From: a virus
Taxonomy: Duplodnaviria; Heunggongvirae; Uroviricota; Caudoviricetes
IMG/VR virus record: IMGVR_UViG_3300005329_000001
DNA: 18,330 nt
Strand: one strand, 5' to 3'
The position numbers were made by a program, and so were the translations under genes. The notes under the pieces are model-generated. The model was not told the DNA's origin, did not search any database, and saw nothing but the letters and a program-made list of their open reading frames with translations. The first letter of the stretch is position 1. Each line of letters opens with the position of its first letter. This document shows positions 2,442-11,849 of the stretch, piece by piece.

Positions 2442-2567
2442 ATGACGACCAAAGGGACGAAGCGCTCGGGCGCCTCGCTCATTGGCTATTCGTGCGATCG
2501 CCAGGAGCAGCCGAGCATCCGCCTCTTCGCCGGTCATCTGGCCAATTGGGAAGGTGCCGGCCCCTAG
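2442..2567 (+). CDS. Possible 41-aa leader peptide (MTTKGTKRSGASLIGYS...)
   Basis: ATG with AGGA 8 nt upstream; lies between the promoter and a terminator-like hairpin. Confidence 0.3.
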   Translation: MTTKGTKRSGASLIGYSCDRQEQPSIRLFAGHLANWEGAGP

Positions 2568-2593
2568 AAGGACTCCCGATAAGGGAACTTGCT

Positions 2594-2635
2594 AGAGGGT
2601 CGGCAGACGAGAGTCTCCCGGCCCTCTTCGTTTTT
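2594..2635 (+). terminator. Terminator/attenuator-like hairpin upstream of the first tRNA
   Basis: AGAGGGTCGG/CCGGCCCTCT stem capped by AGAC-GAGA-GTCT, followed by TCGTTTTT. Confidence 0.6.
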
Positions 2636-2660
2636 GGAGGTGCGGATCGGCAGCAGTGAT

Positions 2661-2728
2661 GGGCAGCGAGCTGGGCTCAGCGGAGACTCCAAATCTCGGC
2701 GTGCAGGGTTCGATTCCTTGGCGGCCCG
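2661..2728 (+). tRNA. trnW: tRNA-Trp(CCA), minimal D-arm (GAGC-TGG-GCTC)
   Basis: Loop CT-CCA-AA, T-loop TTCGATT, G73, one acceptor mismatch. Confidence 0.75.
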
Positions 2729-2733
2729 CAAAT

Positions 2734-2804
2734 GCCCCTGTCGTTCAACGGCAGGACACTGGTTTCGTAAACCAGGAATGCGAGTTCGATTCTCGCCGGG
2801 GGCT
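2734..2804 (+). tRNA. trnT: tRNA-Thr(CGT)
   Basis: Full cloverleaf; loop TT-CGT-AA. Confidence 0.92.
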
Positions 2805-2810
2805 CTGAAC

Positions 2811-2886
2811 GCGGATGAGGTGTACTTGGTTGCACGCGTGCTTGCCAAGCATGAGGTAGCCGGTTCGAATCCGGTCATCCGCACCA
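2811..2886 (+). tRNA. trnG: tRNA-Gly(GCC), A73, CCA encoded
   Basis: Full cloverleaf; loop TT-GCC-AA. Confidence 0.92.
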
Positions 2887-2967
2887 GGGGAATTCAGGAG
2901 AGTGCTCCGATGAAGGTGATGCAGTAGCGTAGTAAGAAGTGCTGCCGGCGAGTGAGCCGGCACGTTT

Positions 2968-3051
2968 GCCGGGGTTGACGGTAAGGTCACCGAGGCTGTC
3001 TGTAAAACAGTCGTCCCCAGGAACAACCCGGTTCGAGTCCGGGCTCCGGCA
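2968..3051 (+). tRNA. trnY: tRNA-Tyr(GTA)
   Basis: Loop CT-GTA-AA, long variable region, canonical T-arm; atypical D-arm linker. Confidence 0.88.
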
Positions 3052-3148
3052 CCGAGGCGAGTAGCTCTCGCCGCGACTTTGAAAACCGAATAGTCGACAG
3101 CGAAGAAACTGGCTCCGGCATGTGCCGTCGCGACACAGTCGGGGCTTT

Positions 3149-3220
3149 GGGTGCCTAGCACAATGGAAGTGCAGCGGACTCTTAATCCGTTGGTTGTGGG
3201 TTCGACTCCCACGGCACCCA
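3149..3220 (+). tRNA. trnK: tRNA-Lys(CTT)
   Basis: Full cloverleaf; loop CT-CTT-AA. Confidence 0.95.
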
Positions 3221-3273
3221 CTGAGGTGAAGCATGGAACGAAAATCAAGCCCGAGCCGACAGCAGCATAGTCA

Positions 3274-3345
3274 GCTCCCGGAGCTCGGGCGGTAGAGCAG
3301 CGGACTTTTAATCCGTTGGCGAGGGTTCGACACCCTACGGGAGCA
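3274..3345 (+). tRNA. trnK: tRNA-Lys(TTT)
   Basis: Full cloverleaf; loop CT-TTT-AA. Confidence 0.92.
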
Positions 3346-3349
3346 CAAT

Positions 3350-3420
3350 GCGCGTGTGATGTAGCGGTAGCATTCCAGTCTTCCAAACTGGCTGCGCGGG
3401 TTCAATCCCCGCCACGCGCT
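3350..3420 (+). tRNA. trnG: tRNA-Gly(TCC)
   Basis: Full cloverleaf; loop CT-TCC-AA; U73. Confidence 0.95.
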
Positions 3421-3460
3421 CTAAAACCGGGTGATCCAGGTTCGAGTCCTGGGTGGGAAG
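3421..3460 (+). other. Isolated tRNA 3' half (CTA-AA, anticodon-stem strand ACCGG, variable loop, T-arm, acceptor strand)
   Basis: CCAGG-TTCGAGT-CCTGG T-arm with no 5' half upstream; starts right after the tRNA-Gly discriminator. Confidence 0.75.
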
Positions 3461-3515
3461 GTGCGGCCCCTTGGTCTCCGTCGATGGCCGTCGACGGTGC
3501 GGGCCTCTGGTCTCC
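3461..3515 (+). repeat. Two 19-nt direct repeats (GTGCGG...TGGTCTCC, 16/19 identical); partial third copy at 3748-3759
   Basis: 3461-3479 and 3497-3515. Confidence 0.65.
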
Positions 3516-3539
3516 TTGAGAAGTCTCGCGAGCTCTCTC

Positions 3540-3577
3540 AACCCACTAGCTCAATTGGTAGAGCACTCGGTCTTTTG
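3540..3577 (+). other. Isolated tRNA 5' half (acceptor strand, D-arm, anticodon-stem strand, CT-TTT)
   Basis: TA-GCTC-AATTGGTA-GAGC-A-CTCGGT-CT; complementary to the 3' half at 3421-3460. Confidence 0.75.
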
Positions 3578-3578
3578 T

Positions 3579-3650
3579 TCGGGCGCCTCCGGCGAGGGGC
3601 GGGGTCTTTGAAATCCTGCTTGCTGGGATCGACACCCAGAGCCCGATCCA
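3579..3650 (+). tRNA. trnQ: tRNA-Gln(TTG), minimal D-arm, T-loop ATCGACA, CCA encoded
   Basis: Loop CT-TTG-AA; CCTC-CGGC-GAGG D-arm; acceptor TCGGGC/GCCCGA. Confidence 0.65.
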
Positions 3651-3660
3651 ACGTTTCTAC

Positions 3661-3731
3661 TCCGGGTTCGTCTAATGGTAGGACAGCGGTCTCTGACACC
3701 GTATGTGGGGGTTCGAGTCCCTCACCCGGAA
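3661..3731 (+). tRNA. trnQ: tRNA-Gln(CTG)
   Basis: Full cloverleaf; loop CT-CTG-AC; U1-A72. Confidence 0.93.
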
Positions 3732-3818
3732 CCGCCCGATGTCGTCTCCTCTGGTCTCCATGGAGCACCGCCTGACGAGGCAAAGGACTCCGGGTGCGGA
3801 GAGGACTAGGGTGACTCT

Positions 3819-3890
3819 GCCGACGTAGCACAACGGAAGTGCAGCGCCCTTGTAAAGCGAAGGTTGTCGGTTCGATTCCGACCGTCGGCT
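3819..3890 (+). tRNA. trnT: tRNA-Thr(TGT)
   Basis: Cloverleaf; loop CT-TGT-AA; anticodon stem only 3 WC pairs. Confidence 0.85.
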
Positions 3891-4106
3891 CTAGACTTTC
3901 TCCCAGCGTGCTTGCCAGTTGATTTCGAAATCGAAGGAAACGTCACCAGATCCGGGCTTGGTCTTCACGCCCACCACAGATGTGACAATGCTTGCTTGGT
4001 ACTGACTACCGTCTGGAAGAGTGATGGTTACCCACGTAGGACGAGCGGAGGTGACCTCGTAGTCGAGAGGCAGAGAAGTTTCGGCTTTGGTCTTCGTCAT
4101 GATCAT
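3891..4106 (-). CDS. Small hypothetical protein antisense to the tRNA array (start may be 4100)
   Basis: ORF fills the spacer between tRNA-Thr and tRNA-Asn exactly; protein-like composition. Confidence 0.6.
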   Translation of the reverse strand: MIMTKTKAETSLPLDYEVTSARPTWVTITLPDGSQYQASIVTSVVGVKTKPGSGDVSFDFEINWQARWEKV

Positions 4107-4178
4107 TCCAGTGTAGCTCAGCGGAAGAGCAGCCGGCTGTTAACCGGAAGGTCACAGGTTCGAATCCTGTCTCTGGAG
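4107..4178 (+). tRNA. trnN: tRNA-Asn(GTT)
   Basis: Full cloverleaf; loop CT-GTT-AA; G73. Confidence 0.93.
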
Positions 4179-4183
4179 CAAGT

Positions 4184-4254
4184 GGTCCGCAGTTCTGGGA
4201 GCGAACGAGATTGCAAACCTCGTGAGTGCGGTTCGACTCCGCAGCGGACCTCCA
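4184..4254 (+). tRNA. trnC: tRNA-Cys(GCA), minimal D-arm (GTTC-TGG-GAGC), U73, CCA encoded
   Basis: Loop TT-GCA-AA; perfect acceptor stem GGTCCGC/GCGGACC. Confidence 0.85.
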
Positions 4255-4258
4255 TTAC

Positions 4259-4333
4259 GGCCCCATCCACTAACGGTTAGGTGACTGCCCTCTCAAGGCA
4301 GGTGTCCGGGTTCGAATCCCGGTGGGGTCACCA
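4259..4333 (+). tRNA. trnE: tRNA-Glu(CTC), CCA encoded
   Basis: Full cloverleaf; loop CT-CTC-AA. Confidence 0.93.
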
Positions 4334-4403
4334 CGCAAATACGGTGTTGGCGCATACGGGCCTCCAAAGCCCGAGGAATGGGTTGAAGCCCCATTGAAGC
4401 GTG
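4333..4403 (+). pseudogene. Degenerate tRNA-Trp(CCA)
   Basis: Good anticodon arm CGGGC-CTCCAAA-GCCCG and T-arm; acceptor only 4 bp. Confidence 0.55.
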
Positions 4404-4408
4404 ACAAT

Positions 4409-4484
4409 CTCCCGCTCCTCTAACTGGCAAGGAGAACCGCCTTTCACGCGGACAATACGGGTTCAACTCCCGTGCGGGAGACCA
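4409..4484 (+). tRNA. trnE: tRNA-Glu(TTC), CCA encoded
   Basis: Full cloverleaf; loop CT-TTC-AC. Confidence 0.92.
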
Positions 4485-4553
4485 CTCAATAGCAGTGTGT
4501 GATGCACGCTCGGCCTGGTGTCGAGAGGAACGGTTTTGATCCGGTGCGAGTAT

Positions 4554-4628
4554 CAAGGTGTAGCTCAATGGTAGAGCTCTCGGTTTGGGACCGAGTGGCT
4601 GGAGGTTCGAGTCCTCTCACCTTGACCA
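4554..4628 (+). tRNA. trnP: tRNA-Pro(TGG), CCA encoded
   Basis: Full cloverleaf; C1-G72; loop TT-TGG-GA. Confidence 0.95.
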
Positions 4629-4637
4629 GTAGAATCA

Positions 4638-4709
4638 CGGGATGTAGCGCAGCGGTAGCGCGCTCGCTTGGGGTGCGAGAGGTCGCCAGTTCGATCCTGG
4701 CCATCCCGA
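4638..4709 (+). tRNA. trnP: tRNA-Pro(GGG)
   Basis: Full cloverleaf; loop TT-GGG-GT. Confidence 0.95.
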
Positions 4710-4841
4710 CTCTACGTAGCCTCGACGCAGTGCCGGTGCAGTGTGACCGGACGAAGAGGGCACAGCCTTACATGCCGACCTGCGACAGCCGGGGCGGGGA
4801 AGAACTCTTCAGGTTCGCTACCTGAAGACGGTTGCCACAAT

Positions 4842-4913
4842 CGGAGTGTAGCGAAGCGGTATCGCGCTCGGTTCGGGACCGAGAGATCGGGAGTTCGATC
4901 CTCCCCACTCCGA
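4842..4913 (+). tRNA. trnP: tRNA-Pro(CGG)
   Basis: Full cloverleaf; loop TT-CGG-GA. Confidence 0.95.
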
Positions 4914-4926
4914 CTAGATTTGCCAT

Positions 4927-4998
4927 GCGCCTTTCGTCCAACGGTTAGGACACTCGCCTGATTAGCGAGATATGAGGGTTCGAATCCTTCAGGGCGCA
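4927..4998 (+). tRNA. trnI: tRNA-Ile(GAT), unusual U37
   Basis: Full cloverleaf; loop CT-GAT-TA. Confidence 0.88.
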
Positions 4999-5000
4999 CC

Positions 5001-5077
5001 CCGTGGGTAGTGTTCAATGGCAGCACGTCTGAGTGTGGATCAGAAGGTGCGGGTTCGAATCCCGTCCCAACGGACCA
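5001..5077 (+). tRNA. trnH: tRNA-His(GTG) without G-1/C73 (A73, bulged acceptor), CCA encoded
   Basis: Loop GT-GTG-GA; acceptor CCGTGGG/CCC-A-ACGG. Confidence 0.8.
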
Positions 5078-5081
5078 GTAT

Positions 5082-5159
5082 GGTGGACGAAGGCAAAATG
5101 GAGGAGCCGCCTGATTGTGGATCAGGTGCTAGCGGGTTCGACTCCCGTCGTTCACCCCA
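5082..5159 (+). tRNA. trnH: tRNA-His(GTG) with G-1:C73, CCA encoded
   Basis: Loop TT-GTG-GA; 8-bp acceptor including G-1. Confidence 0.92.
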
Positions 5160-5226
5160 ATAGCAAGGACGAAGGCTATCTGTCGCTCCGCGCAGAGAGA
5201 GGTGAGCGCTCACCTCATCGTCCGAT

Positions 5227-5302
5227 GCCTGCGAGGTCCACTGGTGTGGACGCTCCCCTGTCACGGGAGATTCGGCGAGTTCGATCCTCGTCGCAGGCGC
5301 CA
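5227..5302 (+). tRNA. trnD: tRNA-Asp(GTC), CCA encoded
   Basis: Full cloverleaf; loop CT-GTC-AC; G73. Confidence 0.95.
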
Positions 5303-5376
5303 TCTCCGTAGCTCAAATGCAGAGCTCCTCGGCCGTTACCGAGGCGATCCGGCCTAGCGACCCGGCAGAGGTGCCA
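5302..5376 (+). pseudogene. Degenerate tRNA-Asn-like gene (6-nt anticodon loop CCGTTA, non-canonical T-loop), G73 plus CCA
   Basis: D-arm GCTC/GAGC and stem CCTCGG/CCGAGG intact. Confidence 0.6.
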
Positions 5377-5378
5377 AC

Positions 5379-5454
5379 GCTCCGGTAGCATAGAGGGTCT
5401 GTGCGCCGCTCTGAAAAAGCGGAGGCGTCGGTTCGATCCCGACCTGGAGCACCA
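5379..5454 (+). tRNA. trnF: tRNA-Phe(GAA), CCA encoded
   Basis: Full cloverleaf; loop CT-GAA-AA. Confidence 0.95.
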
Positions 5455-5529
5455 TCGCAAAAGTTCTCTCTCGCAGAGATAAGGAAGCGCGGGCAATTTT
5501 GCCCTTTAGCGTTTCCAAGGAGAGAGACC

Positions 5530-6498
5530 ATGAGCGACAAGAAGCGTTCGCGCAATCGTATCGAGACCAAGATCGCCTTCTCCAACCTCAACGTTCCGCC
5601 GGGGATGTCGGAGAAGGAGATCGAGCTGCAGGCGCGGGCGGCCGAGGCGACCCGCTCTTCGATCGCCGAGCTGGAAGTGAGCAAGGCGGCGCAGGCCGTC
5701 ACCGCGGCGAGCCTGGCAACCCAGAAGTCCCTTTCGACGATCAACGAGGAGCTGGCCAACAAGCTCTCGCTCCTCCAGGACGTCAAGACGAACATCGACC
5801 TCGAGGCCAAGGAACTCACCAAGCTCTACGGCGCCCGAGTCATCCTCGAGCACCTCGATGTGCTGAAGGCCGAGCACGACGAGCAGAAGGCGGCGCTCGA
5901 GAAGGAGATCCTCGAAGCCCGCACGAAGAACGCCGAGGACTGGAACGCGACGAAGAAGGAGCGCGAGCGCGAACAGGCCGATTACGAGTACACGACCAAG
6001 CAGACCCGCAAGGCGGATCTGGATGCGTGGAACGAGCAGGTCCGGGTGCGCAACATCCAAGAGCTCGCTCGCCAGGACCAGCTCCAGAAGATCTGGGCGC
6101 AGCGGGAAGACGAGCTGAAGCTCCGTGAGAAGGAGCTGATCGATCTTCGGGCCGCGGTCGCCGGTCACCTGGGCGAGATCGAGAAGGCGGTCAAGCAGGC
6201 AGTGGCAATCGAGAGCAACCGCCTGACTCGGGATCACAACCACGCCAAGGAGCTCCTCGAGAAGGATCGGGCGAGCGAGAAGGCGCTCTACGAGGCGGAC
6301 AAGAAGGCTCTTACGGAGCAGAACGCTCGGCTGACGAAGCTGAACGAAGAGCTGCAGATCGCGCTGAAGGAAGCCAACCAGAAGAACGCGGAGATCGCCA
6401 CGAAGGCCCTCGAGTCGACCTCGAGCCGCGAGGCGCTCACCACGCTGCAGACGACGCTCAAGGACGCGGGCGTCAACGGCAGCATTCGGAAGTCGTAA
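5530..6498 (+). CDS. 322-aa all-helical coiled-coil protein (resembles bacterial proteins loosely annotated myosin-heavy-chain-like)
   Basis: AGGAGAG SD before ATG 5530; heptad-rich, motifs EREREQADYEY and WAQREDEL; the ORF-track start 5401 lies inside tRNA-Phe. Confidence 0.9.
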   Translation: MSDKKRSRNRIETKIAFSNLNVPPGMSEKEIELQARAAEATRSSIAELEVSKAAQAVTAASLATQKSLSTINEELANKLSLLQDVKTNIDLEAKELTKLYGARVILEHLDVLKAEHDEQKAALEKEILEARTKNAEDWNATKKEREREQADYEYTTKQTRKADLDAWNEQVRVRNIQELARQDQLQKIWAQREDELKLREKELIDLRAAVAGHLGEIEKAVKQAVAIESNRLTRDHNHAKELLEKDRASEKALYEADKKALTEQNARLTKLNEELQIALKEANQKNAEIATKALESTSSREALTTLQTTLKDAGVNGSIRKS

Positions 6499-6511
6499 GC
6501 AGGGGTAGCAC

Positions 6512-6536
6512 GAAACGGGGTTCGCCCCGTTTCTTT
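6512..6536 (+). terminator. UUCG hairpin, probable terminator or processing signal
   Basis: GAAACGGGG-TTCG-CCCCGTTTC followed by TTT. Confidence 0.7.
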
Positions 6537-6545
6537 AGCTAGTAC

Positions 6546-6618
<73 letters not shown>

Positions 6619-6630
6619 CTGAAGAAGCAC

Positions 6631-6705
6631 GCGGGAGTAGCTCACTGGTAGAGCGCTGGCTCGACACGCCAGAGGTAGAGGGATCGATACCCTCCTTCCG
6701 CACCA
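6631..6705 (+). tRNA. trnV: tRNA-Val(GAC), C33 and T-loop ATCGATA, CCA encoded
   Basis: Stems intact; loop TC-GAC-AC. Confidence 0.85.
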
Positions 6706-6706
6706 T

Positions 6707-6779
6707 GGGGACGTAGCTCAGTTGGGAGAGCGCATCGTTCGCAACGATGAGGTCGAGGGTTCGATCCCCTTCGTCTCCA
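6707..6779 (+). tRNA. trnA: tRNA-Ala(CGC)
   Basis: Full cloverleaf; G3:U70; loop TT-CGC-AA. Confidence 0.95.
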
Positions 6780-6798
6780 CTCATGGTAGGATCCACTC

Positions 6799-7071
6799 AT
6801 GGCGAAAGCGCGGCGGCTCTTTCATCACAAGTGGCGCTGGCAGCGAGTGACAAAGCTGATGGCGCGGGACGGGATGACCTGCATGATCTGCAAGGAGGCC
6901 CTCGATCGCCGCATCAAGGACGTCTTCAGCGAGATGTACATCACCTTCGACCACATCATCCCGAGGTCGGGGGGAGGCACGGACCACATCGACAACCTCC
7001 GCCTGGCCCATCAGGGCTGCAACCGGCGACGGGGCTGTGATCCGATCTTGCCAGAGAGTGAAGCAGCATAA
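6799..7071 (+). CDS. Freestanding HNH endonuclease
   Basis: CMIC...TFDHIIPRSGGGTDHIDNLRLAHQGCN HNH motif. Confidence 0.9.
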   Translation: MAKARRLFHHKWRWQRVTKLMARDGMTCMICKEALDRRIKDVFSEMYITFDHIIPRSGGGTDHIDNLRLAHQGCNRRRGCDPILPESEAA

Positions 7072-7072
7072 T

Positions 7073-7147
7073 GGGGTCGAGAAGTCTGGTGACCAGGACT
7101 GTTTTGCAAGCAGACCGCGGTGGGTTCGATTCCCATCGGCTCCACCA
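7073..7147 (+). tRNA. trnA: tRNA-Ala(TGC), atypical D-arm, CCA encoded
   Basis: G3:U70; loop TT-TGC-AA; canonical T-arm. Confidence 0.85.
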
Positions 7148-7152
7148 TCGAC

Positions 7153-7263
7153 GCGCAGAAGTCTGAACCACGACACCAGCCAGTGAGGGCGAAAGCACCT
7201 GGGAGTGGGAGACGAAAGTCGATTGCACCACGCCGGAGACGCGGGAGTATAGCCCGCCTGCGC
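7153..7263 (+). ncRNA. Candidate structured RNA with three GNRA-capped hairpins
   Basis: Closing stem GCGCAG/CTGCGC; GC-GAAA-GC, GAC-GAAA-GTC, CG-GAGA-CG. Confidence 0.5.
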
Positions 7264-7273
7264 ACACTGATAG

Positions 7274-7344
7274 GCCCCTGTCGTTCAATGGCAGGACGCA
7301 TCCTTGGTAAGGATGAAAAGAGGGTTCGATTCCCTCCCGGGGCT
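7274..7344 (+). tRNA. trnT: tRNA-Thr(GGT)
   Basis: Full cloverleaf; loop TT-GGT-AA. Confidence 0.93.
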
Positions 7345-7346
7345 CC

Positions 7347-7576
7347 GCATCTTGATTTCGAGCCATCGCGGCGAGCGGAAGGAATCGTCTCGCTGAGGAA
7401 GTTCGCGGGTGCTCAGGACGAGTGTCCGAGCTCTGTGGGAGGAGAAATCCGCTGAACCACAACTCGGCCTGCACTAAGGCAAACAGGAGATGTTGACCCT
7501 GTCCGGCGAGTCTCCGGGTTGCTGCTTAGACGAATGATGGCATAGAACAAAACCGCGGCTACGGATCTCAAGATGT
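7347..7576 (+). ncRNA. rnpB: Minimal RNase P RNA (catalytic domain intact, specificity domain strongly reduced, no P18/P19)
   Basis: P1 7347-7355/7568-7576; P2 7362-7368/7535-7541; P3 7370-7394; GAGGAAGUUCGCGG pairing with CCGCGGCU (7553-7560) as P4 with bulged U7402; P5 GUGC/GCAC; P15/P16 with GGU at 7517-7519; AGACGAAUGA and AACAAAAC conserved segments. Confidence 0.9.
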
Positions 7577-7579
7577 CTT

Positions 7580-7651
7580 GTCCTCGTAGTGAAACGGATA
7601 TCACGCGACGCTACGAACGTTGTATTCCAGGTTCGAATCCTGGCGAGGACG
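7580..7651 (+). tRNA. trnR: tRNA-Arg(ACG)
   Basis: Full cloverleaf; loop CT-ACG-AA. Confidence 0.95.
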
Positions 7652-7654
7652 CTG

Positions 7655-7822
7655 ATGGAAGAGCCTTTCAAGATTCCATGGATTCACAGGCAAGACGTCA
7701 GGTACGTCAAAAGAGGGATGTACCGCCTGGTGATCTACGCAAGACGGCACTTCTACTATGACGTGTTTCTCGAGTTCTGCTCTCGTGGTGAAACGGACAT
7801 CATGCAGCCCTCCGAAGGCTGA
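7655..7822 (+). CDS. Possible small ORF (MEEPFKIPWIHRQD...), 3' end overlaps tRNA-Arg(CCG)
   Basis: Fills a 127-nt spacer; GAGG upstream; overlap with a tRNA lowers confidence. Confidence 0.3.
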   Translation: MEEPFKIPWIHRQDVRYVKRGMYRLVIYARRHFYYDVFLEFCSRGETDIMQPSEG

Positions 7823-7850
7823 GTTGCAGGTTCGATTCCTGCCGAGAGCA
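7779..7850 (+). tRNA. trnR: tRNA-Arg(CCG)
   Basis: Full cloverleaf; loop CT-CCG-AA. Confidence 0.95.
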
Positions 7851-7856
7851 CAACAC

Positions 7857-7930
7857 GTCCCTGCAGCATGATTGGATCATGCAGCCGCCTCCTAAGCGGA
7901 AGAGTGCCGGTTCGAATCCGGCCAGGGACA
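7857..7930 (+). tRNA. trnR: tRNA-Arg(CCT)
   Basis: Full cloverleaf; loop CT-CCT-AA. Confidence 0.93.
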
Positions 7931-7931
7931 C

Positions 7932-8003
7932 TGCGGGCTGGAGAAAGGGCAACTCACTAGGCTCATAACCTAGAGATTCCACGTTCAACTCGTGGGCCCG
8001 CTA
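7932..8003 (+). tRNA. trnM: tRNA-Met(CAT), initiator-like (1:72 mismatch)
   Basis: Loop CT-CAT-AA; U1:U72 mismatch; only two G-C pairs at the anticodon stem base. Confidence 0.85.
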
Positions 8004-8004
8004 C

Positions 8005-8071
8005 CGCTCGACCTCTGGGAGGAACGAGGCTTCATACGCCTTGGAGATCGGTTCGATTCCGATGCGAGCGA
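8005..8071 (+). tRNA. tRNA-Met/Ile2(CAT), minimal D-arm (CCTC-TGG-GAGG)
   Basis: Stem GAGGC/GCCTT closing TT-CAT-AC; canonical T-arm. Confidence 0.75.
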
Positions 8072-8075
8072 CTGC

Positions 8076-8151
8076 GCAGCGCAGTTCACCAGGTGGTGAT
8101 GCCTCTCTCACACGGAGGATGAGCAGGGTTCGAGTCCCTGGCGCTGTACCA
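8076..8151 (+). tRNA. trnV: tRNA-Val(CAC), CCA encoded
   Basis: Cloverleaf; loop CT-CAC-AC. Confidence 0.9.
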
Positions 8152-8153
8152 AT

Positions 8154-8237
8154 GCGAGCGTGGCGGAACTGGTAGACGCGCCAGCTTGAGGTGCTGGTGG
8201 CCGAAAGGCCGTGGGAGTTCGAGTCTCCCCGTTCGCA
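8154..8237 (+). tRNA. trnL: tRNA-Leu(GAG), long variable arm
   Basis: Class II cloverleaf; loop TT-GAG-GT. Confidence 0.95.
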
Positions 8238-8244
8238 CAAATCT

Positions 8245-8331
8245 GCTCGGGTGGCGTAACTGGTAAACGCGCCGGTCTCAGAAGCCGGTGGGCGAAAGTC
8301 CGTGTGAGTTCGAGTCTCATCCCGAGCACCA
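8245..8331 (+). tRNA. trnL: tRNA-Leu(CAG), long variable arm, CCA encoded
   Basis: Class II cloverleaf; loop CT-CAG-AA. Confidence 0.95.
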
Positions 8332-8332
8332 T

Positions 8333-8406
8333 GCCGACGTAGTCCAACTGGTAGAGACGTCCGCCTTAGAAGCGGAACAGTAGGAGTTCGAATCTCCTCG
8401 TCGGCA
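8333..8406 (+). tRNA. trnL: tRNA with Leu anticodon TAG but short variable loop
   Basis: Loop CT-TAG-AA; 5-nt variable loop ACAGT. Confidence 0.88.
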
Positions 8407-8411
8407 CTCAT

Positions 8412-8485
8412 GCTCCCGTAGCCCAACTGGTAGAGGCACCGCATTCAAAACGCGGGCAGTATCGGTTCGAATCCGATCGGGAGTA
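8412..8485 (+). tRNA. trnL: tRNA with Leu anticodon CAA but short variable loop
   Basis: Loop TT-CAA-AA; 5-nt variable loop GCAGT. Confidence 0.88.
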
Positions 8486-8518
8486 CAATCTGGTCAGTGC
8501 GAAGAAAGGAAGCGTGTC

Positions 8519-9064
8519 GTGGAGACCCTGGTACTTGACGTCGCATACAGACCACACAGCCGCGTTCCGTGGCAAGAGGCGATCATCAAGGTCCTCGTCG
8601 ACAAGACTGTAGAGGTCGTCGAGAACTACCCGGATCGCTACATCAACACAGTGAGCTGGAAGATCGAGATGCCTTCGATCGTCCGGCTCATCATGCCCGT
8701 GAAGAAGGAGAAGGCCATCAAGTTCTCCCGTCACGGCATCTACGCTCGCGATAAGGGTAAGTGCCAGTACTGCGGGAACCGCGTCTCGAAGAAGGAGATG
8801 CAGTACGAGCACGTGATCCCACGTGCCCAGGGTGGAAAGACATGCTGGGAGAACATCGTCGTCGCCTGCATGTCATGCAACCAGCGGAAGGCCGGTAGGA
8901 CTCCTGCGCAAGCGGGAATGCGCCTCTTGTCGACGCCGGTAAAGCCGAAGAGACTCCCAGACATGGGAGACTACGGCATGACCTACAACCCGGGCATGCC
9001 AGAGGCGTGGAAGACGTACTTGAGATCCCACGCTTACTGGAACGTAGCTCTCGAGGAAGAATAA
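8519..9064 (+). CDS. HNH endonuclease (McrA-like HNH family with N-terminal LVLD..Y.P extension)
   Basis: RDKGKCQYCG...EHVIPRAQGGKTCWENIVVACMSCNQRK; GTG start with AAAGGA SD. Confidence 0.92.
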   Translation: METLVLDVAYRPHSRVPWQEAIIKVLVDKTVEVVENYPDRYINTVSWKIEMPSIVRLIMPVKKEKAIKFSRHGIYARDKGKCQYCGNRVSKKEMQYEHVIPRAQGGKTCWENIVVACMSCNQRKAGRTPAQAGMRLLSTPVKPKRLPDMGDYGMTYNPGMPEAWKTYLRSHAYWNVALEEE

Positions 9065-9078
9065 TCGGGAGGCCACGT

Positions 9079-9363
9079 ATGCGGATCTTGAAGGCAGTGC
9101 TCTTGCTCGTTCTCTTCGTCTCGCCCGCCATGGGATTCGAGACGGCCCCTCGGAAGCTCGCCCCGGCAAGAACTCCGGGTCAGCGTCCGGTGGGAGCTCA
9201 GCCGGATGGTGAGCTCTGCGGGAACGGGAACACGTTCTGCTCCGCCGGCGAAGTCTGCACCAGTCACTTCGACTGCGTGACGGTCTGCGGGACGTTGTAC
9301 TGCTGGTACCAGCTCGAGTCGGCGTGGCAGAACTGCCCCGCTGGTGAGTGCCTCTGTCAGTAA
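9079..9363 (+). CDS. 94-aa secreted cysteine-rich protein
   Basis: GGGAGG SD before ATG 9079; signal peptide MRILKAVLLLVLFVSPAMG; 9 Cys in the C-terminal 48 aa. Confidence 0.8.
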   Translation: MRILKAVLLLVLFVSPAMGFETAPRKLAPARTPGQRPVGAQPDGELCGNGNTFCSAGEVCTSHFDCVTVCGTLYCWYQLESAWQNCPAGECLCQ

Positions 9364-9369
9364 CCGGAT

Positions 9370-9458
9370 GGGGAAGTGGCCGAGAGGCTTAAGGCAGCGG
9401 TCTTGAAAACCGCCGGGCCCCGCAAGGGGCTCCGGGGGTTCGAATCCCTCCTTCCCCG
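9370..9458 (+). tRNA. trnS: tRNA-Ser(TGA)
   Basis: Class II cloverleaf; loop CT-TGA-AA; G73. Confidence 0.95.
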
Positions 9459-9495
9459 CCCTCATTCCGCGCCGCGGCGGTCTCCGCGGCATCTT

Positions 9496-9582
9496 GGAGA
9501 GTGAACTGCACAGGGTGCAGGCCTGCTTGGAAAGCAGTGCGGGCGGCGCAAGCTGTCTGAGGTTCGAATCCTTCTCTCTCCG
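9496..9582 (+). tRNA. trnS: tRNA-Ser(GGA) with 6-bp D-stem/3-nt loop and probable 8/4 acceptor/T-stem fold
   Basis: CTGCAC-AGG-GTGCAG D-arm; loop TT-GGA-AA; 7-bp GCAA-capped variable arm; G73. Confidence 0.8.
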
Positions 9583-9595
9583 CCGGAGCAAGACC

Positions 9596-9763
9596 ATGAA
9601 GGTGAGAACGTTCGACGACGATCACATGGCCGAGGCCGAGCTGCTGAGCGCTCCTGGCGCGACAGGGCTCTGCAAGGTGAAGATCGGGGACAGAACCCTC
9701 GCTCGACACGTTGATCGGCTGGAGCCTCTGGACGACGAAGCCAGGAAGCTCCTGAAGAAGTAG
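9596..9763 (+). CDS. 55-aa hypothetical protein (MKVRTFDDDHMAEAELL...)
   Basis: GGAG SD; fits between two tRNA-Ser genes; the ORF-track start 9494 lies in the tRNA region. Confidence 0.75.
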   Translation: MKVRTFDDDHMAEAELLSAPGATGLCKVKIGDRTLARHVDRLEPLDDEARKLLKK

Positions 9764-9768
9764 TTCTG

Positions 9769-9858
9769 GGAGGGTTTGCACATTGGCAAGTCAGCTCGCC
9801 TCGAAAGCGAGTGGGCTGGGAAACCGGCTCTGGGAGTTCAACTCTCCCCCCTTCCGCC
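9769..9858 (+). tRNA. trnS: tRNA-Ser(CGA), acceptor one pair short, CCA encoded
   Basis: Loop CT-CGA-AA; long variable arm; G73. Confidence 0.82.
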
Positions 9859-9863
9859 AGTAG

Positions 9864-9929
9864 TTGTCGTGCAACGAGGAAGCCGGCAGCGAACAGAGAC
9901 TTTGCTGGCCTCGCAGTGACACAGTCTCT
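9864..9929 (+). ncRNA. Candidate pseudoknotted RNA element
   Basis: Stem GCCGGCA/TGCTGGC whose loop AGAGACT (9894-9900) complements AGTCTCT (9923-9929). Confidence 0.45.
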
Positions 9930-9931
9930 CT

Positions 9932-10017
9932 GCCCGAGTGGTGGAACCGGAATACACAGCCCACTTAAAATGAGCCGCGCCAAGAAGCGCTTGCGGGTTC
10001 GAATCCCGCCTCGGGCA
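9932..10017 (+). tRNA. trnL: tRNA-Leu(TAA), long variable arm, no intron
   Basis: Class II cloverleaf; loop CT-TAA-AA. Confidence 0.93.
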
Positions 10018-10021
10018 CTAT

Positions 10022-10109
10022 GGAGTGGTGGCAGAGCTGGCCTATTGCACCCGGTTGCTAACCGGACGGGTCCGAAAGGGCTCCGAGGGTTCGAATCCCT
10101 CTCACTCCT
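10022..10109 (+). tRNA. trnS: tRNA-Ser(GCT), U73
   Basis: Class II cloverleaf; loop TT-GCT-AA. Confidence 0.92.
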
Positions 10110-10139
10110 CCCCATCTTCGCTGTAGACTATTCGGATTC

Positions 10140-10211
10140 GCCCCCATGGTGTAACGGATAGCGCATCCGCCTTCTAAGCGGATAGTAGAGGTTCGATTCC
10201 TCTTGGGGGCG
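10140..10211 (+). tRNA. trnR: tRNA-Arg(TCT)
   Basis: Full cloverleaf; loop CT-TCT-AA. Confidence 0.95.
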
Positions 10212-10215
10212 CTAC

Positions 10216-10305
10216 CGGCCTGTAGGTTAACGGTAAGACCGACCGCCTTATAAGCGGGGAGCGCCAGATAAGCGCGAAGTGCGGGTTCGAATCCCGCCAG
10301 GCCGA
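10216..10305 (+). tRNA. tRNA with anticodon TAT (Ile AUA reading) and a long variable arm
   Basis: Loop CT-TAT-AA; GCGC-CAGATAA-GCGC variable arm; C1-G72, A73. Confidence 0.85.
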
Positions 10306-10309
10306 CCGA

Positions 10310-10738
10310 TTACGTGTAGGTGAGCTTGACGGTCTCGGTCTGACCGTTGTCGAGCTGGAAGACCAGCAGGTTCACTTCGGCCGCGGCGTTGGTCACGGCG
10401 ATCGCGAACGCTCCGCTGGAGTTCGTCGCGAGCCAGAGCGACTTGGTGCCCGATCCGGCCACGGCCGTACCCGTACCGCCGCTGATCACCATGGTGCCAG
10501 CGCCCGAGACGGGAACCGATGTGACCAGGATGTCGGTGGCCACCTTGATCGGCGTGCCGTCGAGGTCGGTGAGCTGGCCTGTGACGATGATGACGTTGGT
10601 GTTCTCGGCGCCGACCGACAGCGCCAGCACCTTCTCGTTGTTCGTGATCGCCTGTAGTACGGTGGCGATGACATCGCCGCTGTCTGCGAAGTGCTTCAGC
10701 TTCGCGAGCTGGTCCGCGGACACGTTGATCTTACTCAT
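10310..10738 (-). CDS. 142-aa Thr/Val/Gly-rich beta-strand protein, possibly virion accessory/Ig-like
   Basis: AGAGGAG SD before ATG 10738; composition only. Confidence 0.8.
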   Translation of the reverse strand: MSKINVSADQLAKLKHFADSGDVIATVLQAITNNEKVLALSVGAENTNVIIVTGQLTDLDGTPIKVATDILVTSVPVSGAGTMVISGGTGTAVAGSGTKSLWLATNSSGAFAIAVTNAAAEVNLLVFQLDNGQTETVKLTYT

Positions 10739-10877
10739 TCGCTTCTCCTCTTCGAAAGATTCGTGACCACGGGGTGGTCGTAGCTTCTGTAGCGTCTCAA
10801 AGAGACCTGGCGGTGGGAAGAGAAGAACAGCTTGATTCCACAGGCTCTTGGCGGTATCGCTGAAGACGGAGGCCACC

Positions 10878-11159
10878 ATGAGCGACCGTGAGAAGCCGGA
10901 CTACGAACGGGCATTTACCACCATCGAGGACTGCGAGAAGGAGATCTCTCGTCTCAAGGACGACATCTGCCGGAAGGTCAAAGCAAGAGGCCAGACCAAG
11001 CAGAACAAGAAGGACGCGATGGCGGGCTACAACGAGACTCTGAAGGAGCTCGAGGCCGATCTCGACTTCAACACCGAGGTCATCGACGAGCTCTTGCGCC
11101 ACATGAAGCTGCTCGATGCTCAGGGCGGCCCGAAGTCTCCCAAGCTCCAGAGCGTGTAG
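10878..11159 (+). CDS. 93-aa helical/coiled-coil hypothetical protein
   Basis: GGAGG SD before ATG 10878. Confidence 0.85.
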   Translation: MSDREKPDYERAFTTIEDCEKEISRLKDDICRKVKARGQTKQNKKDAMAGYNETLKELEADLDFNTEVIDELLRHMKLLDAQGGPKSPKLQSV

Positions 11160-11162
11160 CGC

Positions 11163-11191
11163 TTGACATCTTGCTCGAGCATGGGTAGCTT
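11163..11191 (+). promoter_or_regulatory. sigma70-type promoter for the Pth-like/tRNA-like unit
   Basis: TTGACA-17 nt-TAGCTT. Confidence 0.75.
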
Positions 11192-11207
11192 CCTGTTCGA
11201 GTACATC

Positions 11208-11225
11208 ATGTCCGCTTGCGCTTAA
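11208..11225 (+). CDS. 5-codon uORF ATG TCC GCT TGC GCT TAA, candidate +1 frameshift entry into the Pth-like frame
   Basis: First ATG after the promoter; two in-frame GCT-T tetramers (11214-11217, 11220-11223). Confidence 0.55.
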   Translation: MSACA

Positions 11226-11244
11226 CACACAGCTCCATCACTAC

Positions 11245-11580
11245 GTGATCATTCGCGAGGACCTTCCTCGCGGAACTCTCGCCGCCCAGATCACCCACGC
11301 GGCTCGAGAGTCCTCCACGCAGTTCAAGATAGATCATTCACCCCTGCCGATTTTCGCCGTCGTGCTTGCTGCACGCTGCGAGACAGATCTGCTCGAGCTC
11401 GAAGCACGCCTGCGAGCCGGCGGGGTCCCTCACTTCGCCATGCGCGAGCCCGATCCGCCACTGAACGGCGCGATCACCGCCATCGGCTTGCCCCCACAAC
11501 CCAAGTCCCAGCTCAAGAAGTACTTGAGCAGCATTCCCAAATTGAAAGAGGAGAGTTCCTATGAAAAACGCCCGCTATAA
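11245..11580 (+). CDS. Pth2-like peptidyl-tRNA hydrolase family protein; true N-terminus probably upstream via frameshift
   Basis: HYVIIREDL..G..AAQ.THA, VVL, EPD...G.ITAIG..P motifs typical of Pth2-fold proteins; frame open from 11167 with no ATG/GTG/TTG before 11245 and no SD at 11245. Confidence 0.75.
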   Translation: MIIREDLPRGTLAAQITHAARESSTQFKIDHSPLPIFAVVLAARCETDLLELEARLRAGGVPHFAMREPDPPLNGAITAIGLPPQPKSQLKKYLSSIPKLKEESSYEKRPL

Positions 11581-11842
11581 CATCCGTGAGTTGAGTACCA
11601 AGCTGCGCACGACGGCCGAGGAGATTCAGAAGCTGAAGAAGCAGATTCGCACGCCGCACTACTTGCCGTCGGCGCAGGAGTACAAGATCTTGGTGCATCT
11701 GAAGCACCTCGCTACGGCGCTGTGCTGTCTCCGAGCGCACCATCGCGGCAAGATGCACTTGCCGAACGATCTCGAGATGAATACACACTTGATCGAAGAG
11801 TTCGAGGGTGTGTACCTTCTCGTGAAGGAGGCTGCAGCGTAA
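11561..11842 (+). CDS. 93-aa basic helical hypothetical protein coupled to the Pth-like gene
   Basis: GAGGAG SD; 20-nt overlap with the upstream CDS. Confidence 0.8.
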   Translation: MKNARYNIRELSTKLRTTAEEIQKLKKQIRTPHYLPSAQEYKILVHLKHLATALCCLRAHHRGKMHLPNDLEMNTHLIEEFEGVYLLVKEAAA

Positions 11843-11849
11843 CACCTAC

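Follow-up and report, generated by a model that had tools for sequence, protein, structure and literature searches.

An 18,330-nt stretch of phage DNA (hereafter the window; bases 181814-200143 of IMG/VR virus record IMGVR_UViG_3300005329_000001) carries, within a long array of tRNA genes, an element at positions 3421-3578 in which the two halves of a tRNA stand in swapped order. The source is a complete virus record (Caudoviricetes) of 210,330 bp with terminal repeats and 59.6% G+C, and soil and rhizosphere metagenomes contain DNA matching this phage. ARAGORN reported 43 tRNA genes in the window, all on the plus strand and spanning 2734-12077, and the array totals about 47 tRNA genes when those missed by the program are added. 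The element fills the gap of about 157 nt between tRNA-Gly(UCC) (anticodon TCC in the DNA) and the following glutamine tRNA gene, and copies of it are carried by two further lineages, L005 and L012. Its parts and its immediate neighbours are as follows.

3350-3420, plus strand: tRNA-Gly(UCC), the upstream neighbour, called by ARAGORN and matched by the Rfam tRNA model (63.2 bits); its discriminator, U3420, lies directly 5' of the element.
3421-3426, plus strand: 5' tail CUAAAA, the letters of which differ across lineages.
3427-3432, plus strand: closing stem, 5' strand in gene order (tRNA positions 39-44), pairing with 3565-3570; helix 1, with three of six pairs changed on both sides.
3436-3452, plus strand: T arm with a 5-bp stem and the loop UUCGAGU; helix 2, with a compensatory change from A-U to G-C.
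3453-3457, plus strand: acceptor-type stem, 3' strand GUGGG, pairing with 3542-3546; helix 3, with three of four pairs changed on both sides.
3458-3517, plus strand: long arm capping the acceptor stem, made of an AAGG/CCUU base helix, two 20-nt direct repeats and an apical hairpin (3478-3497); helices 4-6.
3520-3539, plus strand: small second hairpin before the 5' half; helix 7, present in the window and L005 and absent from L012.
3540-3546, plus strand: AA followed by the 5' strand of the acceptor-type stem (CCCAC).
3547-3564, plus strand: U8-A9 and D arm (GCUC/AAUUGGUA/GAGC); helix 8, with A14, G18, G19 and A21 retained in all lineages.
3565-3571, plus strand: closing stem, 3' strand in gene order (tRNA positions 26-31); helix 1.
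3572-3578, plus strand: 3' tail CUUUUGU; all three lineages have CUUUU after the closing stem.
3579-3650, plus strand: non-canonical tRNA-Gln(UUG) with an encoded CCA, the downstream neighbour, recognized by its cloverleaf fold, synteny and alignment and missed by ARAGORN and Rfam.

The 3' half comes first (3421-3460) and comprises the 3' strand of an anticodon-type stem, the T arm (CCAGG/TTCGAGT/CCTGG) and GTGGG. The 5' half (3540-3573) comprises CCCAC, U8-A9, a canonical D arm (GCTC/AATTGGTA/GAGC) and the 5' strand of the anticodon-type stem; the two halves are complementary to each other, and a 79-nt spacer lies between them. The sequence, an ARAGORN call on the joined halves and the unconstrained minimum free energy fold of 3421-3578, which is the permuted cloverleaf itself, agree on this arrangement, which the initial annotation had proposed, and the element does begin at the first base after the tRNA-Gly discriminator at 3420. 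Joining 3540-3573 to 3421-3461 in silico yielded a cloverleaf called by ARAGORN as tRNA(CUA), and the alternative 36/37 join was called as Lys(UUU). Both products have a 6-bp anticodon stem and five of seven acceptor pairs, the remaining two being the terminal mismatches A1.A72 and A2.A71; these had been listed as caveats from the start and are real, and the terminal acceptor pairs are mismatched in L005 as well. A resemblance to tRNA-Trp, also remarked upon at the outset, proved unspecific, with the Asn, Arg, Ile and Lys classes matching equally well, and class comparison established no specific tRNA ancestry, whether Trp or Lys.

The spacer, described as structured in the initial annotation, is a conserved, covarying domain and not a disposable linker. 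The two 20-nt direct repeats of its arm (3460-3479 and 3496-3515; GGUGCG..UGGUCUCC) pair with one another, and the genome holds no other copy of them. In genomic order, the element gave no match to tRNA, YrlA, permuted tmRNA or any other Rfam family, and 3421-3578 gave no match to RF00005 (tRNA) at E values up to 10. Promoter-like and terminator-like sites were not found within 2500-4300, and the CUUUU tail was rejected as a terminator on a negative consensus scan. There was no coding signal in the element; an overlapping open reading frame (ORF; 3431-3775) was rejected as a gene, having a GC3 of 0.57, crossing two tRNA genes and lacking a conserved frame.

Relatives of the locus were found through the protein encoded at 5500-6498. 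The element follows tRNA-Gly(UCC) in three lineages (the window, L005 and L012, the neighbouring protein being 39-50% identical), as a single copy per genome and at the same site each time. The gap between tRNA-Gly(UCC) and the next tRNA-Gln in the relatives was occupied as follows.

L002, gap of 6 nt: empty.
L003, gap of 3 nt: empty.
L004, gap of 359 nt: an HNH endonuclease gene of 110 aa (L004 7807-8139, plus strand), exactly in the slot of the element.
L005, gap of 207 nt: the element.
L012, gap of 356 nt: the element and, after it, a Gln(UUG)-like gene that is degenerate and was recognized by eye.

The L005 copy (8294-8457) matches the window element end to end at 72-77% identity, the surrounding functional tRNAs being 63-97% identical. 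A covariance model built from these two copies scored 163-193 bits on them and found the third, more diverged copy in L012 (1989-2131, 53 bits) in the gap after Gly(UCC). Over 124 kb of tRNA arrays, artefacts formed by the 3' half of one tRNA and the 5' half of the next reached at most 33 bits, and because the true copies exceed these adjacent-tRNA artefacts, the element is more than a chance arrangement. The copies differ at their edges, with that of L012 lying 81 nt from tRNA-Gly without abutment and that of L005 having a 3' tail ~50 nt longer. This extra 50 nt (L005 8449-8510) displays GGAGG, a 6-nt spacer, ATG and a 16-codon frame running into tRNA-Gln(UUG), a short frame that is probably due to chance.

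The element is absent from L002, L003 and L011, and its site holds the HNH gene in L004. The flanks are ~80% identical between the window and L002 and ~85% identical between L005 and L004, each bearer having a closer relative without the element, and in both pairs the flank identity holds as far as the tRNA-Gly end and picks up again inside tRNA-Gln(UUG) or shortly past it. In a soil strain, the element shows one change in 156 nt, the adjoining tRNA-Gly carries ~18 differences, and the Gln(UUG) slot has been replaced. Because the distribution is patchy and the junctions are sharp, the element is an accessory feature at a recombination hot spot. Its divergence between lineages equals that of the flanks, which fits descent with repeated loss better than recent transfer. 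Exact-core scans of the viral collection with either half gave no match, and scans with the linker repeats returned only the near-identical strains L008-L010, plus one chance match in coding DNA (L007); the two-repeat signature had no match in viral or genome collections. Among GenBank phages the locus had no relative, scanning viral contigs with a single protein gave no match, and a profile scan gave only the distant L011, which is without the element; in L013 and L015, the site was not reached or the element was absent. Nothing attributable to the element was covered in one metatranscriptome, a result that has no bearing on its expression. The corresponding gap of L011 (6701-7054) contains another tRNA-like piece, with a 7-bp acceptor stem (CTCTCCT/AGGAGAG), a T arm and one long hairpin; the tRNA that comes next is unusual, having CCAUGAC as its anticodon loop.

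Folded separately, the window and L005 copies arrive at the same architecture, which runs from the closing stem and T arm to the acceptor-type stem, on to the long arm and small hairpin, and then to the D arm. Comparison of the two copies over 44 consensus pairs revealed 25 identical pairs, 6 changed on one side and 13 changed on both sides with pairing maintained, and no broken pair. When the L005 substitutions were shuffled among columns in 5000 trials, the mean number of compensatory pairs was 2.1 (maximum 8) and that of broken pairs 12.9 (minimum 5). The counting tool returned 100% of cells paired and the same 13 double changes for these two copies, against 0-3 in slid registers; none of the eight helices was without a double change. 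After the addition of L012, 97.7% of cells were paired, and 16 pairs and 24 cells were changed on both sides, slid registers giving at most 4 pairs. The helices that join the halves, namely the closing and acceptor stems, covary, and the halves are thus under selection to pair. Retention of the permuted order with compensatory changes between the halves was the test that the initial annotation had named for relatives, and both L005 and L012 display it, with pairs changed on both sides.

Nucleotides involved in tRNA tertiary structure were also retained (U8, A14, G18-G19, A21, and C56 and A58 of the T loop). The 79-nt spacer, which holds covarying helices, is the most invariant part of the element, and the apical hairpin of its arm varies in stem sequence with its pairing retained. 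In L012, the small hairpin is gone and the acceptor stem runs on into the arm as a continuous 11-bp helix that contains one A.A mismatch, which leaves RNase P without a single-stranded leader. The structure of the element, its conservation and its covariation are shown here; the permuted-tRNA anatomy is correct and under selection, and the element is best filed with the tRNA mimics.

Several known RNAs share parts of this layout. Soma et al. (2007) and Chan et al. (2011) are said to have described circularly permuted tRNA genes in Cyanidioschyzon merolae, other algae and Thermofilum. The algal and archaeal permuted tRNAs mature through a bulge-helix-bulge endonuclease and a ligase via a circular intermediate into ordinary decoding tRNAs, and their linkers are short and unconserved. 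To our knowledge, no such maturation pathway exists in bacteria, decoding genes of the permuted kind are confined to a few algae and archaea, and the only permuted mimics are partners of Ro60. The element has in common with the algal and archaeal genes the 3'-half-first order on one strand, the cloverleaf and the break in the anticodon loop, whereas its linker (60-80 nt) is conserved and its loop letters vary; in the window and L005, the neighbouring tRNAs abut it, leaving no leader or trailer for a bulge-helix-bulge. The two-piece tmRNA (RF04321) is a permuted bacterial tRNA-like gene whose acceptor-side and 5' pieces are base-paired, and it provides a bacterial precedent for the layout. It has no true D stem, however, and carries a tag reading frame and a free CCA end, whereas the element has a full D stem and gave no RF04321 match. 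The species 1 and 2 RNAs of T4 and RNA1 of T5 are stable tRNA-like RNAs in phage tRNA clusters, and they resemble the element, by description only, as tRNA-related, non-decoding RNAs that are co-transcribed with phage tRNAs and released by tRNA processing, as is proposed for the element; unlike the element, they are not described as permuted. In the searchable literature, we found no account of a phage tRNA array containing a permuted tRNA-like RNA.

The tRNA-like domain of YrlA (RF02553) consists of a T arm, a closed acceptor-type stem and a D arm, with the ends of the RNA on the anticodon side; in Mycobacterium smegmatis, YrlA is cleaved by RNase P and receives CCA in vivo, and YrlA-like RNAs occur in phages (Chen et al. 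2014, PMC4201824). The element has the same connectivity, the same retention of tertiary nucleotides and the same occurrence in a phage. However, the Ro60-binding helix is absent from it, and the tails beyond its 6-bp closing stem lack consistent pairing across lineages; the short acceptor loop of YrlA is replaced by a conserved, branched 60-80-nt arm with two 20-nt repeats, and the element differs further in being embedded in a tRNA array, flush with its neighbours. The GNCGAAN0-1G motif was absent from both strands of the window and L005 copies, and no TROVE/Ro60 gene (PF05731) was found in the complete 210-kb genome, where positive controls worked. No RF02553 match fell on the element at E values up to 10, and the RF02553 matches in the array were adjacent-tRNA artefacts. 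An ACAGCAA handle was likewise looked for; the window lacks this motif, and L005 and L012 each have it a single time, over 1.4 kb away from the element. Membership in the YrlA family fails because the Ro60-binding helix and motif, the TROVE gene and the RF02553 match are all missing.

The best reading of the element is a tRNA mimic with YrlA-like connectivity but without the Ro60 handle, gene linkage or Rfam match. We regard 3421-3578, with moderate confidence, as a structured noncoding RNA of ~158 nt, with a permuted tRNA core and a capped acceptor end, that serves as an accessory tRNA mimic. A number of considerations weigh against this assignment. The element is known here from DNA sequence and predicted folds, and the single-sequence folding z-score is modest (-1.17). 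The covariation is drawn from only three diverged lineages, and the counts lean toward structure because the consensus structure comes from the same sequences and the alignment (A4) is model-fitted. The conserved linker structure could serve processing and not the mature RNA, and acceptor cleavage is possible for the window and L005 forms because RNase P cuts the identically connected M. smegmatis YrlA, which also receives CCA (PMC4201824).

The alternative that survives best, although we find it doubtful, is a true permuted or split tRNA gene, the arm of which would be excised by RNase P together with RNase Z or exonucleases to give a two-piece tRNA, its parts kept paired through the closing and acceptor stems, perhaps CCA-tailed and perhaps ligated in the anticodon loop by a 3'-OH/5'-P ligase, that could decode or be charged. 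RNase Z and RNase P generate 5'-phosphate and 3'-OH ends, and processing of the neighbouring tRNAs would leave such ends at the open loop. ARAGORN accepts the joined halves, a mini RNase P RNA lies in the same array, the CUUUU by the open end hints at a Lys(UUU) ancestry, and the fate of the M. smegmatis YrlA offers a parallel for cleavage and tailing (PMC4201824). The phage also has two genes with ATP-dependent DNA-ligase-family domains (genome 18299-18883, minus strand, and 208362-208706, plus strand; one above the Pfam cut-off), which would suit ligation, but nothing ties them to RNA.

Comparison among lineages runs against a split tRNA. The CUA (33/34 join) and UUU (36/37 join) anticodons suggested by the initial annotation are both accepted in silico, but neither the letters nor the join is conserved. 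The open end begins with CUAAAA in the window, CUUUUAA in L005 and GGCAGU in L012, with CUA confined to the window lineage, and because these letters differ, the 33/34 join and its amber anticodon are not conserved; nor is the coincidence of a start at position 34, since the L012 element stands apart from tRNA-Gly. Loop lengths are also lineage-specific, and no single join rule gives a 7-nt anticodon loop or a common anticodon in the three lineages. The longer 3' tail of L005, the distance of L012 from tRNA-Gly and its continuous acceptor-arm helix (a poor RNase P substrate), the mismatched terminal acceptor pairs, and an arm better conserved than the tRNA-like stems all point in the same direction. 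Trp and Cys had seemed missing from the ARAGORN set, but because the Trp, Cys and Gln(UUG) genes sit at syntenic sites, all 20 amino acids are served without the element. In the complete phage genome, the RtcB, Rnl2, LigT and CCA-adding enzyme families were not found, and the earlier view of the element as a ligation substrate is left unsupported by this and by the varying loop letters; a search for T4 Rnl1 (PF09511) gave no match, but its controls gave none either. Taken together, the element is probably not a decoding tRNA.

It is unlikely that the element is a cis-acting module of the polycistronic tRNA transcript that recruits or paces RNase P and RNase Z, or shields the precursor from exonucleases, with no role after release. 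Its location between tRNAs without a promoter or terminator of its own would be consistent with such a module, as would the description of the tRNA elbow, in a preprint, as a landmark for RNase P and RNase Z. Two motifs, YUGGUCUC and GUGCGG, are moreover common to the arm of the element and to the structured Gln(CUG)-Thr(UGU) spacer found in four lineages. Close relatives nevertheless process the same Gly-Gln junction with a spacer of 3 or 6 nt and no element, and a specific, nearly invariant arm is hard to account for by processing alone.

A YrlA-type Y RNA working with Ro60/Rsr supplied by the host is improbable. The identical connectivity and the presence of YrlA-like RNAs in phages (PMC4201824) speak for it, but the phage genome has no TROVE gene, the element has neither the GNCGAAN0-1G motif nor an extended helix of its 5' and 3' ends conserved across lineages, and RF02553 gave no match at E values up to 10. 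We consider it quite improbable that the element is the RNA or DNA trace of a small cassette that is mobile or prone to recombination and sits at a hot spot, with a structure serving its own spread and not the phage. The patchy distribution, the sharp junctions at tRNA boundaries, the HNH gene in the L004 slot and the near-identical copy in a strain with differing flanks would fit a cassette; however, there is one copy per genome at a constant site, with neither an associated ORF nor terminal repeats. Scans of public collections yielded no copies at other places, and the inter-lineage identity of 72% agrees with that of the flanking tRNAs, which vertical descent with losses would lead one to expect. 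A non-functional remnant of a tandem tRNA duplication with two deletions, hinted at by the acceptor mismatches and by CUUUU(A/G) loop pieces at both ends, as if two tandem copies had been trimmed, is barely credible, for covariation excludes a decaying remnant (0 of 44 pairs broken and 13 compensated between lineages as diverged as functional tRNAs), the third lineage, L012, retains the element, and an identity of 72% rules out the recent transfer of one sequence.

As an accessory tRNA mimic, the element would be co-transcribed with the tRNA array and, in the window and L005, released by the enzymes of its neighbours, with RNase Z or 3' trimming acting at tRNA-Gly and RNase P at tRNA-Gln(UUG). 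The whole molecule may then present a tRNA elbow together with a specific arm, as a decoy, tether or scaffold for a tRNA-recognizing factor; a decoy function is possible. Its function would be accessory and might be directed against tRNA-targeting host defences, a role that is plausible because phage tRNAs are an established escape route from tRNA-cleaving defences (PMC11455837). A bolder proposal, which seems unlikely to us, is that the element founds a new class of phage tRNA mimic, in which the acceptor end of a permuted core bears an arm specific for a protein or RNA, acting as a counter-defence decoy or sensor-blocker against tRNA-directed immunity and, more speculatively, as an RNA partner of vault-like genes of the phage.

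These genes encode a PARP-like protein (window 14306-15730, minus strand) with WGR, PARP regulatory and PARP catalytic domains and, ~7 kb from it, a 932-aa homologue of the major vault protein (MVP; genome 204387-207182, minus strand, equivalent to L018 388-3183; MVP shoulder domain, 83.6 bits). MVP and PARP are both protein components of eukaryotic vaults. The gene pair adjoins the RNA-rich locus, and the PARP gene is present also in relatives without the element; a search for the Vault repeat (PF01505) gave no match, but the controls gave none either.

Cleavage of tRNA is emerging as a common bacterial defence, and the element, with its defined length of 158 nt, is a candidate for exploring how tRNA look-alikes that do not decode serve phages. 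It is a covariation-supported permuted tRNA-like RNA, apparently neither of the decoding type nor linked to Ro60, within one of the fullest phage tRNA sets seen, and the same array has several rewired tRNAs as well as a miniature RNase P RNA. Standard tRNA finders overlook both the element and four working tRNAs of this array, which are tRNA-Gln(UUG) at 3579-3650 and the following three.

2660-2732: Trp(CCA) tRNA, aligning with the gene of the relatives at the syntenic position.
4184-4253: Cys(GCA) tRNA, aligning with the gene of the relatives at the syntenic position.
9495-9582: probable Ser(GGA) tRNA, on the basis of its loop and a match to the tRNA-Sec model that falls 8 bits short.

All four escape ARAGORN and the Rfam gathering threshold. 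Trp(CCA), Cys(GCA) and Gln(UUG) were identified by synteny and alignment to relatives, and each has a minimal D arm. The 72 nt directly 3' of the element (3579-3650) fold into a non-canonical cloverleaf with the loop CUUUGAA, and the near-identical strain L010 shows a compensatory change in the acceptor stem. The array order is syntenic in relatives (Thr, Gly, Tyr, Lys, Lys, Gly(UCC), the gap, Gln(UUG), Gln(CUG), Thr, Asn, Cys, Glu, and so on), and on account of this synteny, 3579-3650 is taken as the tRNA-Gln(UUG) orthologue. A standard one-piece tmRNA is encoded at genome 7787-8147, outside the array of the window.

The mini RNase P RNA lies between tRNA-Thr and tRNA-Arg at 7350-7577 (plus strand), where 228 nt match bacterial RNase P RNA in part, with 46.6 bits, under the gathering score. 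Its catalytic-core motifs are kept, a specificity-domain block of ~105 nt is cut to 7 nt, and it had no blastn match in L002-L004 or L011. The protein of ~322 aa encoded at 5500-6498 (plus strand) lies inside the array between tRNA-Phe and tRNA-Ala and is present in all relatives found, with 39-62% identity; it matches no Pfam family, and the sources label its homologues just as coiled-coil-type. The Gln(CUG)-Thr(UGU) spacer is a conserved structured RNA in its four lineages (3734-3818, plus strand, in the window; L005 8661-8749; L002 4464-4552; L004 8304-8392); a CUCUCC/GGAGAG stem closes it, and its inner hairpin, with the loop GACG, covaries. HNH genes also occur inside arrays at other places, including 8519-9064 of the window.
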